A stretch of 64,000 bases of DNA from Bacilli bacterium. Its GTDB lineage: Bacteria > Bacillota_I > Bacilli_A > RF39 > UBA660. A program made the position numbers and the translations under genes. A model generated the notes under the pieces. That model ran no database searches. It saw only the letters and a list, made by a program, of their open reading frames with translations, and was not told where the DNA came from. Positions within the stretch are counted from its first letter, which is position 1. Every line of letters begins with the position of its first letter. Location of the stretch: the NCBI GenBank assembly GCA_017441065.1, contig JAFSAI010000016.1, forward strand, positions 17,599-81,598. The letters are read 5' to 3'. Positions 13,927 to 37,370 of this stretch are shown here, piece by piece.

Positions 13927-13976
13927 AAAAAAATAACGGAGTGATAGGTTATTTCGTAAAATAAACCATCTCCGTT
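13927..13976 (-). terminator. Long-stem rho-independent terminator of element copy A
   Basis: AACGGAG..GGTTTATTT / AAATAACC..CTCCGTT stem followed by a T-run on the minus strand. The differences from copy B fall in the internal loop. Confidence 0.7.
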
Positions 13977-14195
13977 TTCAATTTGGAATAAATTCCTAGA
14001 TAATCTTTGTCCTCTATCTTCCCAAAAATATAGCCTTGGCCATATCATCATTCAAGTTATAGTGGGCTGGGCGAACCGAATTCGCATTACTCAAGTTTTG
14101 ATTGTTGACATTACCGTTCGAATTCACATTCCACGCATTGTAATTACTACCATTAAGACCGTAACGCGCAAATACATTCTCAAGACTACCTAACC
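13927..14195 (-). repeat. Copy A of a ~270-nt conserved element (candidate ncRNA; DGR template-repeat-like core plus conserved 3' hairpin)
   Basis: Roughly 85-90% identical by eye to 37091-37370 in the same orientation. Has an extended -10 TGATATAAT (about 14188-14196), an Asn-codon-rich A-avoiding core (14064-14168) that ends in a GC-rich GGTTCGCCCAGCCC segment, and a long terminator hairpin. Confidence 0.8.
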
Positions 14196-19924: not shown

Positions 19925-20105
19925 TAGATTACTCCTTTCTAAATATGAGTATAATATTATATAATCTTTTTTACTATCTATTTTCAGTTGCGATTACATA
20001 AAAAGCAAAAAATTTTTTTCATCCAATTCTACACCTACTACCACTTACTATATATTAGTATATCACGCTTAGCAACATTATGGTAAAAAATACATTTCCT
20101 GACAA

Positions 20106-20135
20106 GCAAAAAGCCAGATATAAAATCTGACTTTT
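20106..20135 (-). terminator. Rho-independent terminator (junction-module copy)
   Basis: Minus strand: AAAAAGTCAGAT-tttat-ATCTGGCTTTTTGCTTGTC. Confidence 0.65.
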
Positions 20136-20236
20136 TAAACTTTAAATAATTATGAATATTTATTAAATTTACTTTTATTGGTGCACAATTACAGTGTTTT
20201 TGTATCTTATTATTCAACTAATAAATTATAATTTGA

Positions 20237-22201: not shown

Positions 22202-22328
22202 ATATATTTTTACCTCCAGACCTTCTATTACAATTTTATTATATCATAAAACTTCTTATTATAAATATACCTAATAAATCGTTATTTGAAAACATCTTGA
22301 TATAAACCAAAAATGCATTTTTAGACAA

Positions 22329-22358
22329 GCAAAAAGCCAGATATAAAATCTGACTTTT
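22329..22358 (-). terminator. Rho-independent terminator (junction-module copy)
   Basis: Same hairpin as at 20106-20135, followed by GCTTGTC. Confidence 0.65.
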
Positions 22359-22466
22359 AAAACATATGAAATAATTCTTAACGTTTACTAAATTAGCTTC
22401 CCTTTATTTATGCGGGTTTACAGCATTTTTGTATGATACTTGTATGATACTGCAGTGTCTTCAACC
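22359..22466 (-). repeat. R-block copy containing a pseudo 3' end of rpsI (att-like direct repeat)
   Basis: 22378-22397 TTAACGTTTACTAAATTAGC aligns with rpsI 27935-27955 TTAACGTTTTGAGAATTGTGG. The flanks align with 25962-26060, and a degenerate core TGTATGATACTTGTATGATAC lies at about 22430-22450. Confidence 0.75.
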
Positions 22467-22574: not shown

Positions 22575-23015
22575 TTAAATTTTTTCTTCTATGCTTTTAA
22601 TATATTTATCTAAACTCCTATGATTTTTAATTTCAGAAACAAAATCTAATTTGAACTGACCTAGATATTTAATAATTAAATCTGCATATCTATCCAAGTT
22701 TGAATCGTTTACGACTTCTTCTAAATATTTATTTATTCCTTTAGTTTGATTTACTCTTTCAACATAAAAAGCTAATAAATTACTTGAACCTATTTTTTCC
22801 TTTGCAAGAAGAACTATTGATTCTAAATTTTCTCTTGAACAAAAATATCTTGGTTTATAAACTCCTGCCATAGAAAACATTATTAATACACTACCAATAA
22901 AAAGTTTATCTGTACCATCATTTGGAAATGTTTTTTGTGTAAACTTTATTAAACCATCAATTGTATTATTTTCTGAATAATCATCATATAATTCCATTAA
23001 AATCCTGTTAATCAT
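22575..23015 (-). CDS. Hypothetical protein (146 aa), no recognisable domain
   Basis: Intact ORF with AGAGG RBS; predicted helical and acidic. Last gene of the cassette bounded by the pseudo-rpsI repeats. Confidence 0.55.
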   Translation of the reverse strand: MINRILMELYDDYSENNTIDGLIKFTQKTFPNDGTDKLFIGSVLIMFSMAGVYKPRYFCSRENLESIVLLAKEKIGSSNLLAFYVERVNQTKGINKYLEEVVNDSNLDRYADLIIKYLGQFKLDFVSEIKNHRSLDKYIKSIEEKI

Positions 23016-23241
23016 TTTTTACCTCTTTTTAATTATTAAATTAATTTTATTTAATCAATTTATTTTCCAAAATCTTTTTTTACCCTAATAACAGAACTAA
23101 TACTAGCACAACTAACTTCTAAATTTTATAAAGATTTCGAAAATATTTTGTCTCCTCAATTTATTCTTTTACTTTTTTTATTTCTAATCGATAAATTACA
23201 ATTTATTATTATCACATTATTAAAATATATTTTGTTATTTA

Positions 23242-24015
23242 TCATATCATCATATCAAACTCCAATTGTCTTTCTTTCACTTCTAGCATTTCTTTACAAG
23301 CAATAGATAATGAATCTACTACTTTGATTGATGATGGATTCAAATATTTATAATTAGATTTCGAAAAAATATAATTAATGATCAATACATATGGCTCATA
23401 CTTTTTTAAACAATAACCATCTGCTACAAAAACATGTTTATTATAGAAATCAATACAATCGAAGTTTAAACGTGAATATTCGTATTTACAATAAAACAAC
23501 TCCAAATATGATTTTTCAAAATCAATATTTTTAGCATCGTCTAACAATTTGTCAAAGTCTTTTTCTAATTTAATTATTTCTGTATTTTCTAATAATCTTT
23601 TTCTATAATTAGGGAGAAATATTCTTATATCACACTCTTCACAGGCTGGCACATGTCCTTTAAAATATTCATAACAATCAACACTTATTTCCTCATCTAA
23701 ATTGTGAAGATTTATTAATTTACAATATCTTTTACCATTTTTCTCTACTACATAAAAATGAAAATATCTTTGCCCATACCAACCTTTATCATCTGTAGTA
23801 TTTAATCTATATCTACATTGTAGTAACACATTTTCGTCTTTATCTATAGTATAATATGTATCTTTCCATTGAATGTTTCTATCAACTTGAGACATATCAT
23901 TTTGATGAAATTCTCTTACATAATCTCTTTTAAAAGATTTATTTTCAGTTACTTCTTTCTTCTTGTGAGTATCATTTTTTAATTTATTTTTCCTACTCCA
24001 TAACATCTTTGTCAC
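23242..24015 (-). CDS. Hypothetical protein (257 aa), Cys/Tyr-rich, no recognisable domain
   Basis: Intact ORF with AGAGGTGA RBS, driven by a copy of the shared promoter module. Basic N-terminus and CEECD motif; no family assignable. Confidence 0.6.
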   Translation of the reverse strand: MTKMLWSRKNKLKNDTHKKKEVTENKSFKRDYVREFHQNDMSQVDRNIQWKDTYYTIDKDENVLLQCRYRLNTTDDKGWYGQRYFHFYVVEKNGKRYCKLINLHNLDEEISVDCYEYFKGHVPACEECDIRIFLPNYRKRLLENTEIIKLEKDFDKLLDDAKNIDFEKSYLELFYCKYEYSRLNFDCIDFYNKHVFVADGYCLKKYEPYVLIINYIFSKSNYKYLNPSSIKVVDSLSIACKEMLEVKERQLEFDMMI

Positions 24016-24140
24016 CTCTACAAATTACTATTTATCTACCAGATACATTATAACATATATTTTAGAGAGTTAGAGTGCAAGAACGACTAGTGGCTAGATT
24101 TTATAATGGTTTTCGTTATATCATGTATGCTGTGTGTATG
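24016..24140 (-). promoter_or_regulatory. Shared promoter/operator module, copy 3 (diverged)
   Basis: Core TGTATGCTGTGTGT at 24124-24137, CATTATAAAATCT, direct-repeat-like AGAGTGCAAGAAC (24072-24084), and -10 TGTTATAAT. Confidence 0.5.
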
Positions 24141-24174: not shown

Positions 24175-24708
24175 TTATTTATTTCGATTATTATAGAAGT
24201 CTACTATAAGTTGATATAATTGTACCAACAATATACTTATTTCTGTTAATGGAATACTTATACTAAATCTTTTTATTATTTTAGGTTTTCTTTTATAATT
24301 TTCATTTGTATCAAAAACTGTTAACGATTTTCCTGGTTCAAATATAAATTTTGAATGAGAAACTGCGTTGCGAATATGACCTACAAAATCCCCATTTTTG
24401 TAATCATCTGTATTTAAAACATAAATTTTACTATCTATCTTATCCTTTATAAAATCATTAATTATTTCATATTGCAATTTATCCGCATATATTTCCTTTG
24501 GAACGACGAAAAAAATATACATTAAAATCATTACAACGCCTTGAGAATCTAAAGTCATTTTTCTCAACGTCTCCTTAAATTCAAAATTATAATTTTTTAA
24601 AAAATAATCTGATTCAAGAAAATCTTTAGATTTTAATTCCATTAGTAAAATTCCTATTGCAATAGATTGTACTACTAGATTATCTTTATCATCAATTTTT
24701 ATTGTCAT
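24175..24708 (-). CDS. Small HEPN-like protein (Rx4H motif)
   Basis: 177 aa. GHIRNAVSHSKF contains R-N-x3-H, the HEPN RNase signature. The start overlaps the upstream radical SAM gene by 17 nt. The HEPN call rests on this motif only. Confidence 0.55.
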   Translation of the reverse strand: MTIKIDDKDNLVVQSIAIGILLMELKSKDFLESDYFLKNYNFEFKETLRKMTLDSQGVVMILMYIFFVVPKEIYADKLQYEIINDFIKDKIDSKIYVLNTDDYKNGDFVGHIRNAVSHSKFIFEPGKSLTVFDTNENYKRKPKIIKRFSISIPLTEISILLVQLYQLIVDFYNNRNK

Positions 24709-25768
24709 GTAACCTCCTTGAATTTTTCATATATATTTTTCTGCAAAGTGGTTCTACCCTTTTTCCACCAGGTGTTTTTACTTCTTCTAAATTTTCATAA
24801 ATACTATAATGTTTAATTCCATATTTTTTCATTGTGGCTATATCCAATTCTTTGAATGCTGGACATGGCAATACTGTTCCATCAAATTTTATATCTAGTT
24901 TTTCTAATCCCGCATTACATTTATGTGAAGTATCTCCCATTAATGGTATCCCAATTCTTATATGACCACCATATAAATTTCTAGAATTATTTAAAAGCTT
25001 CATAAATTCTACTAATTCACTTTCACTTAACATTAAATCATTTGCATTTTTCGACCCTCTACCTTGAGGTACAAAATTAAGTATGCTAATATTATTTATT
25101 CCAGCAATTTCTAACATTTCTAATATATCTGGGATTTCTCTATAATTTGGTTTCATCGGAATAAAATGAACATCCGTTTCTAATCCAACAATTGAAGCAT
25201 TCAATAATGAATCCAATAAGCAAGCATGCTTTTGTCTATTTCTTCCCATTAAATATTCATCAGTTTCATGTTCATATGCTTGATAATCAAAAACTATTTT
25301 ATCTAATCCCATTGATTTTAGCAAAATTAGCTCTTCTTTGGTTATAGGGCTGAATGCAGGTGGATGTATTATTCTTTCATAATAATTTTTTACGTTATTT
25401 TTTAATCTTTCGTTCCAAGATTCATGTTTTTCTATTTCTGCTAATTTAAGATTCATTTCTTTGATATAAAAATCTATTGCTTCAGCAGATAGTGGTAAAG
25501 ATTTTTTTATACCACTTGTAAATATTACTGTCCTTATTCCAAATGATTTAGCGTATTCAACCATCCTTAATAAATCAGGATGTAAAAAAGGTTCTCCACC
25601 ACTTAAAGATAATTCCTCTATTCCACCCTCACTTATAAAATAATCTATAACTCTTTTAAAATCATCAAATGAAATAATTTGCTTTTTATCAATACATGAA
25701 TTTGAAGAACAAAACTTACATTCATTTGGACATGATTCAATTATTTCAAAACATAAATCTTTTACCAT
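24692..25768 (-). CDS. Radical SAM enzyme with C-terminal SPASM/twitch-like Cys motif
   Basis: CPNECKFC (CxxxCxxC), SLSGGEPFLHPDL, and C-terminal HKCNAGLEKLDIKFDGTVLPCP. Start taken at the ATG after GGTGG (MVKDLCF..). Confidence 0.85.
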   Translation of the reverse strand: MVKDLCFEIIESCPNECKFCSSNSCIDKKQIISFDDFKRVIDYFISEGGIEELSLSGGEPFLHPDLLRMVEYAKSFGIRTVIFTSGIKKSLPLSAEAIDFYIKEMNLKLAEIEKHESWNERLKNNVKNYYERIIHPPAFSPITKEELILLKSMGLDKIVFDYQAYEHETDEYLMGRNRQKHACLLDSLLNASIVGLETDVHFIPMKPNYREIPDILEMLEIAGINNISILNFVPQGRGSKNANDLMLSESELVEFMKLLNNSRNLYGGHIRIGIPLMGDTSHKCNAGLEKLDIKFDGTVLPCPAFKELDIATMKKYGIKHYSIYENLEEVKTPGGKRVEPLCRKIYMKNSRRLHDNKN

Positions 25769-25780
25769 AAAACCACCCAT

Positions 25781-25961
25781 TTATTAATTTTTATTATATC
25801 ATAAATTCACCGAAAATTAGAACGCGAGAACTACTATCTTCAAGATTTTATAATGCTTTGCTCAATCTCGTGTATGATGTATGTATGCTGTGTGTTATCT
25901 TTAGGGTAAAAATAGCCTATTTTTTTTATTGCAGCAAAAAAGCCCGTAAATACGGACTTTT
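25781..25961 (-). repeat. Terminator-core-promoter junction module, copy 2
   Basis: Aligns over about 170 nt with 27723-27890: terminator 25934-25961, core TGTATGCTGTGTGT 25882-25895, AGAACGCGAGAAC 25819-25831, and -10 TGATATAAT (25793-25801). Confidence 0.8.
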
Positions 25962-26060
25962 GAAACATTTGAAATAATTCTTAACGTTTTGTAAATTAGT
26001 GTCCCCGTATTTATGCGAGTTTGCGGAGTTTTTGTATGCTGTGTGTATGCTACACAAACG
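25962..26060 (-). repeat. R-block copy containing a pseudo 3' end of rpsI (att-like direct repeat)
   Basis: 25981-26001 TTAACGTTTTGTAAATTAGTG matches rpsI 27935-27955 at about 18/21 positions. A second core TGTATGCTGTGTGT lies at 26033-26046 with the flanking inverted repeat TGTGTA..TACACA. Confidence 0.8.
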
Positions 26061-26531: not shown

Positions 26532-27704
26532 TCAATCTGAAAATTTATCATTTTGCATATATCGCCAATGAAAACCACCACATCTATAATTTCCATTTAC
26601 AGAAGCTATTATACTACAAGGTTTCTTATTAACAAATTCTGCTGCAGATTTAACTGATTCAAAAGTTTTATTTAACTCTACACAAAAAACCTTTTTATAC
26701 GCTTTAGTATATCTGCATTTTGGGCAACCGCATCTATCTTTACCTGTTCTTGATGCCACAACTGAAGAATATGAATTTTTGCACTTAGGACAAATCCACC
26801 ATGTTTTTTTGCCAGTATGTGCTGATATTTTATCCGGTGTTAACGGATAATTTTTTTCATAATCCCATTCCTTTGAAATTTCAGGATATAAATAATCTAA
26901 AGAATTAAAACCTATTGTAGAAAGGACTTTCCTACATATATCAGCATTATCCCTATTACAATCGACATCAATATTCATATTACAACCATATTCATTATTT
27001 AAAATTTCAATAATTTGATTTATTGGTTCACTCATATGCGTTCCATTTGTAGTCGGCTTAGGAGTTATAATACAATGATGAGAACTTTCCATTATAGGAC
27101 ATCTTGGTTCCCTTATACGAATTATTGTAATTCCGTTCTTTAAACAAATATTATTTTTAAAATTATCTTTTGCTACGTCTTTATGCCATCTATAACCGTC
27201 ATATTCTATACCCAAATTTAAGGATGGAATAAATATATCTATTTCTTTTCCGTCTAAAAAATCAGGTCGATATTGTTCTTGTATATCTTCAAAATATTTT
27301 GATAAATAATAGAAAATCATTTTTTCGGGAATTGATACTCGAGACATACAAATTCCACAACTTAATGATTTATAAGCTTTTAAATTGCTTTCCAATATCA
27401 CTTTAGTTCTTCCACAAAGACATTCACAGAGCCATTGTTTTTCATGCGCTTGAGATTTTGGCTTAATATAATCATGTGCTTGTTCCTTAACGGTTAAATA
27501 ACCAAATACGTTCCCAATTTTTATTGGTTTTACATGCTTGCATCCATCTCTCCCAAGGCGTTGATTTTTATGAAACCAATCTGTTGTAATTTCAACTTCA
27601 TTTTCGCAAACTTGGCAAATACAGCGCCATTTACTATTACCAATATATTCTTTAGCTATAAGCGTGCCTGATATTTGACCTGTCAATTCTTGCAAACTTC
27701 CCAT
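26532..27704 (-). CDS. Zinc-ribbon-rich protein with a central Vsr/DUF559-like PD-(D/E)XK nuclease core and a phage-type C-terminal DNA-binding tail
   Basis: Repeated W.C.C..C../SCGIC ribbons. EIDIFIPSLNLGIEYDGYRWH resembles the PD-(D/E)XK Vsr/DUF559 core. YPEISKEWDYEKN..WWICPKCKNSY is a DUF4379-type ribbon. The C-terminal FESVKSAAEFV..GGFHWRY is common in homing-endonuclease-like phage proteins. Start at the ATG after GGAGG (MGSLQ..). Confidence 0.6.
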   Translation of the reverse strand: MGSLQELTGQISGTLIAKEYIGNSKWRCICQVCENEVEITTDWFHKNQRLGRDGCKHVKPIKIGNVFGYLTVKEQAHDYIKPKSQAHEKQWLCECLCGRTKVILESNLKAYKSLSCGICMSRVSIPEKMIFYYLSKYFEDIQEQYRPDFLDGKEIDIFIPSLNLGIEYDGYRWHKDVAKDNFKNNICLKNGITIIRIREPRCPIMESSHHCIITPKPTTNGTHMSEPINQIIEILNNEYGCNMNIDVDCNRDNADICRKVLSTIGFNSLDYLYPEISKEWDYEKNYPLTPDKISAHTGKKTWWICPKCKNSYSSVVASRTGKDRCGCPKCRYTKAYKKVFCVELNKTFESVKSAAEFVNKKPCSIIASVNGNYRCGGFHWRYMQNDKFSD

Positions 27705-27722
27705 AATATTAACCTCCAACAA

Positions 27723-27890
27723 TTTATATTATATCATAAATTCATCGAAAAATAGAACGCGAGAACGACTAGCTTTTAGGTTTTATAATGGTTTGATTAA
27801 CATTGTGTATGCTGTGTGTCATCTTCAGGACAAAATTAGCTTATTTTTCATAATTTAGACAAGCAAAAAAGCCCGTAAATACGGACTTTT
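27723..27890 (-). repeat. Terminator-core-promoter junction module, copy 1 (directly after rpsI)
   Basis: Terminator 27863-27890, core TGTATGCTGTGTGT 27806-27819, AGAACGCGAGAAC 27754-27766, -10 TGATATAAT (27728-27736), then GGAGG RBS. Confidence 0.8.
27863..27890 (-). terminator. Rho-independent terminator of rplM-rpsI
   Basis: Minus strand: AAAAGTCCGTA-ttt-ACGGGCTTTTTTGC, 45 nt after the rpsI stop. Confidence 0.75.
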
Positions 27891-27934: not shown

Positions 27935-28354
27935 TTAACGTTTTGAGAATTGTGGAGCACGACGTGCTTTCTTTAAACCATACTTTTTACGTTCTTTAAC
28001 TCTTGGATCTCTTGTAACGAAACCAGCAGTTTTAAGAATATGTCTATAACTATCTTCTCTAGTTTGATCTGTATTTGCATCAAATTCAAGTAAAGCTCTA
28101 GTAATAGCTAATCTTATAGCACCAGTTTGTCCTGAGAAACCACCACCGTTAACTTTAACTTCGATATCGAATCTATTTTCATTATCAGTTGCTACTAATG
28201 GTTGTTTTAAATCCATTACTAATGTAGCATAAGGCATATATTCATCAACATCAATACCATTAACAGTAATTTTACCAGTACCACCAACTAATTTAACTTG
28301 TGCTACTGATCTTTTTCTTCTACCTGTTGCAGTCCAAATTTGTTTACTTGCCAT
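27935..28354 (-). CDS. rpsI: 30S ribosomal protein S9
   Basis: [10 protein letters not shown].., ..[26 protein letters not shown]-terminus. Confidence 0.97.
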
Positions 28355-37090: not shown

Positions 37091-37370
37091 AAAAAATAAC
37101 GGAGTAACAGGTTATTTCGTAAAATAAACCATCTCCGTTTTTAATTTGGAATAAAATTCCTAGATAATCTTTGTCCTCTATCTTCCCAAAAATATAGTCT
37201 TAACCATATTATCATTCAAGTTATAGTGGGCTGGGCGAACCGAATTCGTATTCGTCAAATTATTGTTATTGACTTGCCCGTTCGAATTCACATTCCACGC
37301 ATTGTAATTACCACTGCTATTAGCTCCGTAACGCGACTCTTTATCCAAGATTACCTACAATAATTATATG
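37091..37370 (-). repeat. Copy B of the ~270-nt conserved element (candidate ncRNA; DGR template-repeat-like core plus conserved 3' hairpin)
   Basis: Same architecture as 13927-14195: own promoter, A-avoiding Asn-codon-rich core (37228-37335) ending in GGTTCGCCCAGCCC, a conserved ~110-nt tail, and a terminator hairpin (37091-37139). Confidence 0.8.

Follow-up and report, generated by a model that had tools for sequence, protein, structure and literature searches.

In a 64,000-nt stretch of contig JAFSAI010000016.1 from a Bacilli bacterium (hereafter the window), a gene for a radical S-adenosylmethionine (SAM) enzyme, rSAM, runs into the start of a gene for a small HEPN-family protein on the minus strand beyond rpsI. 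We find that these two genes do not form a conserved pair. The explanation we prefer, with a probability of roughly 70%, is that rSAM and HEPN are independent genes that became juxtaposed when a promoterless HEPN gene inserted once at the end of a lone rSAM gene. An earlier note on this DNA had proposed that the two constitute an undescribed two-gene defence module. That proposal fails since rSAM and HEPN are not syntenic across independent lineages: no rSAM-seeded locus that we collected carries a HEPN gene within its flanks (up to 4–6 kb), most HEPN genes whose surroundings we read stand without rSAM, and the loci that do bear the pair share a single junction.

The neighbourhood was read from both genes. 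Starting from rSAM, we assembled 168 loci (88 from genomes and 80 from metagenomes) with flanks of up to 4–6 kb; the metagenome loci belong mostly to a clade of ~60%-identical rSAMs, labelled Clostridia among the metagenome-assembled genomes of the genome set, and include few near relatives. Searching the flanks with a hidden Markov model of the HEPN family found a HEPN gene in none of the 168 loci. The genes directly 3′ of rSAM fall into ~50 unrelated clusters, and aligning all of these downstream clusters to the HEPN profile with hhalign gave probabilities below 2%. Pfam recognised among the neighbours def (peptide deformylase), NTPase_I-T, GNAT, SIR2, S15, signal peptidase, UDG, NTP_transf_6 and others. 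Across 124 distinct loci, the commonest neighbour family within two genes of rSAM occurs in 14 at most. The neighbours of rSAM are hypervariable or housekeeping genes, and it has no fixed partner gene. A DUF1848 protein (~298 aa) lies near rSAM in three otherwise differing loci (L001, L063 and L080), and YfbR-like HD phosphohydrolases flank it in both L001 and L098; these observations hint weakly at a neighbourhood concerned with nucleotides.

Starting from HEPN, the contexts of ten proteins were read, and rSAM stands beside HEPN in two of them (P0001, 98% identical to the window protein, and P0002, 86%). A 71%-identical HEPN (P0003) lies directly after rpsI in another genome with no rSAM, and three that are 60–67% identical (P0004, P0005 and P0006) are solo or sit behind other genes, likewise without rSAM; two of these three have their own TTGTTATAAT promoter. 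Further afield, a 34%-identical HEPN (P0129) has hsdR on one side and hsdS/hsdM on the other in a Type I restriction-modification (R-M) system, and a distant relative (P0165) adjoins a serine recombinase and a Mob gene in a mobile element. Synteny with rSAM in other genomes, on which the earlier note had staked its proposal, is not found.

The place at which the pair was joined can be located by comparison with the closest rSAM gene, that of locus L008. The two are 96% identical in DNA up to ~24725 and then diverge, a few codons before the rSAM stop, and the gene that follows in L008 encodes not a HEPN but a 155-aa protein with a hydrophobic N-terminus. The loci with the pair, namely the window, L188–L191 and L098, all have one junction in common. 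As the pair is confined to near relatives sharing this junction, we infer a single insertion.

Direct reading of the sequence bore out the two open reading frames (ORFs), the CxxxCxxC, GGEPF, C-x12-G-x4-C and R-x4-H motifs and the 17-nt overlap described in the earlier note (Table 1). The rSAM ORF as called mechanically spans 24692–25780 on the minus strand and encodes 362 aa, to which all rSAM residue numbers here refer. Translation probably begins at the second ATG, at 25768 (MVKDL...), because GGGTGG precedes this codon, homologues begin with MVKDL and P0009, a database protein with 100% identity, has a length of 358 aa. The HEPN start is preceded by an AAGGAGG ribosome-binding site 6 nt upstream, and the last nine residues of rSAM, SRRLHDNKN, are the translation of this site and of the HEPN start region in a different frame. 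Overlaps occur in 15 of the window's 52 pairs of neighbouring co-oriented genes, and in 29 of the 52 the distance is no more than 25 nt; overlap and tight packing are the norm in this compact genome and nothing special to the pair. Inspection of the DNA from the HEPN stop to the promoter-like module that comes next revealed no hairpin with a T-run. A scan for generic promoter and terminator consensus sequences returned 44 sites against 45 expected from shuffles, hence no enrichment, and was not used because it is uninformative in AT-rich DNA.

Table 1. Location of the rSAM and HEPN genes, their motifs and the surrounding cassette features (positions are those of the window)
Feature	Position	Strand	Basis or remark
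Radical SAM (rSAM) gene	24692..25768	-	358 aa from likely start; lone twitch-type family
CPNECKFC, CxxxCxxC, radical SAM [4Fe-4S] cluster motif	25709..25732	-	residues 17-24
SLSGGEPFLHPDL, GGE-type SAM-binding motif (GGEPF)	25571..25609	-	residues 58-70
HKCNAGLEKLDIKFDGTVLPCP, C-x12-G-x4-C twitch/SPASM beta-hairpin	24860..24925	-	residues 286-307
Predicted HEPN-family nuclease gene, PF18736 pEK499_p136 type	24175..24708	-	177 aa; PF18736 in homologues
R113-N-A-V-S-H118, predicted HEPN R-x4-H catalytic motif	24355..24372	-	family conservation
Overlap of rSAM stop and HEPN start, 17 nt	24692..24708	-	read from sequence
rpsI (ribosomal protein S9)	27935..28354	-	translation; Pfam Ribosomal_S9 on orthologues
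Homing-endonuclease-like gene, 396 aa, between rpsI and rSAM	26532..27722	-	Pfam, PHROGs
Core (26033-26046), pseudo rpsI 3′ end (AAAACGTTAAGAATT) and hairpin/T-run terminator; inter-cassette right end	25947..26046	-	repeats D3, D13
Core (25882-25895) and promoter-like module (...TATGATATAAT) before rSAM	25781..25895	-	repeats D2, D4
Core (24124-24137) and promoter-like module of the next cassette (257-aa orphan)	24040..24137	-	repeat D2
Two orphan ORFs (257 aa, 146 aa), separate cassette	22575..24015	-	own core and promoter-like module (first ORF)
Second pseudo rpsI end and terminator, right end, after core variant ATCATACAAGTATCATACA	22344..22450	-	repeats D3, D8

The assignment of the small protein rests on its family. 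It carries GHIRNAVSHSKF at residues 110–121, which includes R113-x4-H118, and among 64 family members R113 and N114 are invariant while conservation of A115 and H118 is 90% or higher. PF18736 is precomputed on all eight close homologues and on all 120 matches listed of 347 profile matches; when we rescanned the 64 homologues, 63 matched it (best E-value 9e-11). Several relatives are named 'HEPN family nuclease' by NCBI, and comparison of the family with annotated PF18736 members gave profile E-values of 1e-36 to 1e-51. By this transitive, family-level homology together with the motif, the 177-aa protein is a predicted PF18736 HEPN-family nuclease homologue, as the HEPN-like label in the earlier note had implied, and by sequence clustering it belongs to a small divergent PF18736 subgroup of eight clusters. 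Sequence searches of the PDB with the HEPN profiles gave chance matches only (E ≥ 0.46), and the protein matches nothing in PADLOC-DB v2.

That the larger protein is a radical SAM enzyme is firmly supported. Pfam Radical_SAM (PF04055) scores 58.3 bits against a cut-off of 29.5, and the protein has the CxxxCxxC motif, the GGE motif and the partial TIM barrel that define membership of the superfamily. Across 25 homologues, C17, C21 and C24 are invariant, as are S58, S60, G61, E63, P64, F65, L66 and H67 around the SAM-binding motif and C288, G301 and C306 of the C-x12-G-x4-C hairpin. The AlphaFold2 (AF2) model has a predicted local distance difference test score (pLDDT) of 87, and Foldseek with this model found 163 PDB matches at E < 0.001, with radical SAM enzymes leading. 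The closest were SkfB, SuiB, BlsE, viperins, CteB, PqqE and MoaA, with template modelling (TM) scores of ~0.55–0.6 and 12–18% identity.

The earlier note had further suggested a SPASM or twitch C-terminus, and here only part of the suggestion stands. In a profile of the 25 homologues the C-terminal hairpin does align to the SPASM hairpins of CteB and PqqE, and a third conserved C-terminal cysteine, C346, accompanies C288 and C306. A full SPASM domain (PF13186 / TIGR04085) has seven cysteines in the arrangement C-x9-15-G-x4-C ... C-x2-C-x5-C-x3-C ... C and binds two auxiliary clusters. In rSAM the CxxCx5Cx3C block is absent and Pfam SPASM gives no match, so it falls short of a full SPASM; distant relatives of rSAM do match PF13186. 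Lacking that block and having just three conserved cysteines at the C-terminus, rSAM is best described, on its sequence, as a twitch-like, uncharacterised radical SAM family. Neither rSAM nor its distant relatives reach the cut-off of any NCBIfam model, the best partial matches of rSAM being tungsten-cofactor maturase, PqqE, NirJ and MoaA. In PADLOC-DB v2 it is matched by generic N-terminal prokaryotic viperin (pVip) models only, over residues ~10–92, and by no system-specific model; the PADLOC comparison that the earlier note had advised thus yields no system-specific match for either protein. We rejected an identity as viperin, for which there are only these generic N-terminal core matches and a score of 39.6 bits against a cut-off of 180 for NCBIfam viperin_w_prok.

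The rSAM family is large, with 891 clusters at 90% identity (E < 1e-10) and 220 representatives at 50% identity (E < 1e-30). It occurs in at least 157 species-level genomes, all of them uncultured gut Bacilli or Clostridia of low GC, and is strongly conserved, with 55–96% identity across the two groups. Members have a family-specific helical insert of ~45 aa (residues ~95–140) that is missing from broader relatives. Collections of phages and plasmids contain no match to rSAM or HEPN, except for one 32%-identical rSAM in Parabacteroides, and IMG/VR holds a single 48%-identical rSAM and nothing more.

Both genes lie in an array of small units for which the 3′ end of rpsI and the intergenic region downstream of it are the template. 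Repeat alignments confirmed the repeated rpsI-end, terminator and promoter modules reported in the earlier note. The segments 22344–22450 and 25947–26053 are 80% identical (repeat D3), each with a pseudo rpsI end, a hairpin and a T-run, and the 25947..26046 element shares 89% identity with the genuine rpsI terminator (D13). The segments 25786–25884 and 27721–27819 are 84% identical and constitute a promoter-like module, of which a third copy lies at 24065–24140; rSAM in L008 and L190 is preceded by this module too. A 14-nt core, ACACACAGCATACA, has four exact copies within 24.1–27.8 kb, where chance would give 0.36 matches in the whole window allowing up to two mismatches. It marks four unit borders, sometimes as tandem CATACA-type repeats, and lies ~115 nt downstream of the rpsI stop. 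The grammar of the array is a core followed either by a promoter-like module leading into the next gene or by an rpsI-end copy, terminator, spacer and another core, and it recurs in L008, L098 and L188–L190. The array extends on the minus strand from rpsI (27.9 kb) to ~20 kb in units of 1–2 kb with one or two genes each: the 396-aa homing-endonuclease-like gene, rSAM with HEPN, the 257- and 146-aa orphans and a gene for a 654-aa surface protein. In L008 as in the window, rSAM and its second gene occupy one core-to-core unit, and in L098, L012 and L016 rSAM comes directly after rpsI.

The contents of the array turn over. Contigs of the same species (L188–L191) keep rSAM and HEPN, and in place of the orphans they have an AMP-binding gene and others. 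These replaced units and the pseudo-rpsI repeats at 26.0 and 22.4 kb support the view in the earlier note that DNA between the repeats was acquired: repeats of the rpsI end enclose DNA that is both acquired and variable. A four-gene co-transcribed operon of rSAM, HEPN and the two orphans, which the earlier note had also entertained, is not borne out, the orphans being replaced in the same-species contigs and the first of them having its own core and promoter-like module. The orphans match nothing in Pfam, NCBIfam, PADLOC or PHROGs. No integrase was detected among the six ORFs of 20.2–27.7 kb with Pfam, NCBIfam and PADLOC (and, for five of them, PHROGs), and the sole mobility-type gene among the scanned ORFs is that for the 396-aa protein. 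This protein combines treble-clef zinc fingers (DUF4379, 7e-16) with a Vsr/DUF2726-like nuclease (weak DUF2726 and MTES_1575 matches) and matches HNH/homing endonuclease families of PHROGs at 2e-17 and 3e-12. Such a gene could drive turnover at the rpsI site. In L089 a homologue survives as a truncated remnant immediately upstream of the solo HEPN gene there.

Further features of the array and its surroundings were noted in passing. Downstream of the endonuclease-like gene, the noncoding segment 26290–26480 (minus strand) folds with a minimum free energy of −43.4 kcal/mol (z = −3.3; one of 200 shuffles equals it) and contains a 12-bp hairpin; it has no Rfam match and no homologue in L008, and Rfam finds nothing over the whole of 20–29 kb. 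The 654-aa surface protein has a Listeria-Bacteroides repeat and transmembrane segments. Its gene has terminator-like sequences on both sides (20086–20140 and 22309–22363, 91% identical) and, flanked by these matching copies, appears to be another inserted unit of the array. Outside the array, a ~220-nt direct repeat (13928–14150 and 37091–37314, 88–95% identical, 23 kb apart) contains a hairpin-forming AACGGAG...CTCCGTT.

Alleles of rSAM itself also move horizontally. Between the window and L008, rSAM is 96% identical while ribosomal proteins L13 and S9 are 80% and 85% identical; between L001 and L016 the relation is reversed, with rSAM at 64% and L13 and S9 at 89% and 91%. This incongruence of the rSAM phylogeny with rplM and rpsI points to horizontal replacement of rSAM alleles, and we softened an initial label of rSAM as a housekeeping core gene on the same grounds. 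The Parabacteroides homologue with 32% identity (L187; P. distasonis NZ_OY725812.1, 45648–50806) is in an operon with Nmad2, a 5-hydroxymethyldeoxyuridine (5-hmdU) DNA kinase and a 521-aa protein. The operon directly follows a PDC-M50A / TIR (ThsB-like) candidate defence pair; ~1.6 kb upstream, the opposite strand encodes a site-specific integrase. The locus looks like a nucleic-acid-modification or defence island and, by analogy, hints at a nucleic-acid substrate for the broader rSAM family.

On the reading that rSAM and HEPN are independent genes, a tandem array of small gene cassettes would have built up at the rpsI 3′ end, and a HEPN module consisting of a ribosome-binding site and an ORF would have entered within the last few codons of rSAM. 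This single insertion would have created both the nine-codon rSAM tail and the 17-nt overlap, and would have brought HEPN under the rSAM promoter, from which the two genes may be co-transcribed. By analogy with characterised HEPN RNases (PMC3710099), a HEPN dimer could form a composite R-x4-H site, cleave cellular or phage RNA and act as a latent toxin or abortive-infection effector. On this analogy HEPN is most likely an RNase toxin or defence gene that stands alone and travels as cargo in the rpsI cassette array.

Several observations weigh against this reading. The pair, which has no separate promoter module before HEPN, has been kept through some divergence (HEPN 86%, rSAM 87% identical in L098). 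In the near rSAM clade the next gene is always tightly packed (−17 to +23 nt) and differs by genome: it encodes HEPN in some, and in others the 155-aa protein of L008, a zinc-finger protein of the CHC2 type, a C39-like peptidase, or a 128-aa protein together with DUF1848. This pattern also resembles swappable effectors. Horizontal exchange of alleles, as seen for rSAM, is typical of accessory or defence genes. As to the nuclease assignment, the window HEPN protein taken alone scores 17 bits against PF18736, below the gathering cut-off of 26.6, and its AF2 model, made from a nine-sequence alignment only, is poor (pLDDT 41); Foldseek with this model gave noise (no match below E 0.37).

The near-clade pattern would follow if rSAM were the constant part of a modular system with a swappable second gene (HEPN, a zinc-finger protein, a C39-like peptidase or the small protein whose N-terminus is hydrophobic), where rSAM would produce a signal or a modified nucleotide, or else act as maturase for its partner. 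We regard this as improbable. The closely spaced second genes that vary between genomes, the confinement of rSAM and second gene to one core-to-core unit in L008 and in the window, the horizontal movement of rSAM alleles and the distant homologue in the operon of Nmad2 and the 5-hmdU DNA kinase, next to a candidate TIR defence system, all argue for it. However, tight spacing is the genome norm, HEPN occurs independently of rSAM, PADLOC gives generic radical SAM core matches only, and rSAM in most of the 124 loci has rare or housekeeping neighbours at larger distances (def, NTPase_I-T, a TrmA-like methyltransferase, Ppx/GppA, NUDIX) and in L005 lies inside a cell-wall gene cluster. We have equally little confidence that rSAM is a stand-alone nucleic-acid-modifying or antiviral enzyme carried on mini-cassettes, in one clade perhaps with swappable second genes that include HEPN. 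Closer to the original proposal, the pair could be a young functional unit in which rSAM modifies or restrains HEPN, in the manner of an antitoxin or maturase, or modifies an RNA that HEPN recognises. The overlap of 17–20 nt and the shared promoter are indeed retained in three flanking contexts (the window, L188–L191 and L098) while the surrounding cassettes have changed, and the nearest structural relatives of rSAM include the peptide and protein maturases SkfB, SuiB, CteB and PqqE. Since all pair-bearing loci descend from one junction, however, this retention is not independent evidence; moreover, HEPN relatives at 60–71% identity lack rSAM, a 96%-identical rSAM lacks HEPN, and rSAM as a family greatly exceeds the pairing in age and breadth, all of which makes a young unit quite unlikely. 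It is very unlikely, finally, that the 177-aa protein is an inactivated or repurposed HEPN-like protein, for example with an anti-defence or regulatory role. The poor AF2 model leaves room for such a protein, no antitoxin-like partner is visible, and Pfam gives a weak match to Gad1 (Gabija anti-defence 1; E 6e-4). We rejected an identity as Gad1, as the match is below cut-off and confined to one of 64 family members; R-N-x3-H is conserved across the family, and relatives lie in Type I R-M operons, a classic HEPN context.

A conserved rSAM–HEPN system would have been a new immunity architecture in which radical chemistry is coupled to an RNase; the evidence says otherwise, and this outcome saves the effort of cloning and phage challenge on a chance juxtaposition. 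The divergent PF18736 subgroup shows that HEPN genes travel as promoterless modules or small cassettes. What remains of value is a very widespread, lone and uncharacterised radical SAM family in small-genome gut Firmicutes, and an rpsI mini-cassette hotspot with a 14-nt core, which can help to find accessory and defence genes in gut Bacilli that have not been cultured.

In the literature we found no described system in which a member of this rSAM family is joined to a PF18736 HEPN; given that the pairing lacks conservation, such an absence is no evidence for a new system. Known radical SAM enzymes offer partial likenesses. Like SkfB, BlsE, SuiB, CteB, PqqE and MoaA, the window rSAM has a CxxxCxxC motif, a partial TIM barrel and a C-terminal hairpin, but it differs from them in its low identity (12–18%), its three C-terminal cysteines and its ~45-aa helical insert, and, unlike around twitch/SPASM maturases, no precursor peptide or pathway genes are found nearby. 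Prokaryotic viperins resemble it as single-gene radical SAM enzymes of similar size (Foldseek E ~1e-12 to viperin structures), yet viperins lack the twitch cysteines. HXS (PMC13128918) and Ophion (bioRxiv 10.1101/2025.09.30.679545) likewise use a radical SAM enzyme, in their case within an anti-phage operon. Its partners are an HxS-repeat effector and HxsB/C/D in HXS (PMC13128918) and PHP and PRTase in Ophion (bioRxiv 10.1101/2025.09.30.679545), and neither system includes a HEPN; these partner genes are not present here, and HxsC models score far below cut-off for the window rSAM.

The small protein resembles the PF18736 pEK499_p136 family, stand-alone proteins of ~180–200 aa with a conserved R-N-x3-H. 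A survey of this family (Anantharaman et al. 2013, PMC3710099) reported R-M, ART, Macro, NamA and Pgl contexts, and the R-M-linked and mobile-element contexts of the survey recur among the relatives of the window HEPN. The window copy differs in its position behind rSAM at an rpsI hotspot, a context unlisted for the family and not conserved. Through P0129, the relative between hsd genes, there is also a likeness to anticodon nucleases of the PrrC/RloC type embedded in Type I R-M loci. By this analogy HEPN likely follows a PrrC/RloC-like logic in which a latent RNase serves as back-up defence, although the window protein has no ABC-ATPase domain and lies outside an R-M locus.

The closest parallel to the array is found in streptococci, where integrative and conjugative elements, integrative and mobilizable elements and decayed elements accrete in tandem at the rpsI 3′ end (PMC5357655, PMC4701971). 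The window units are smaller, at 1–2 kb, and differ in having no integrase or relaxase and in having promoter-like and terminator modules and a shared 14-nt core; one unit is the homing-endonuclease-like gene. The target is nevertheless the same, and the direct repeats between which the elements stand in tandem are in both cases copies of the rpsI 3′ end.

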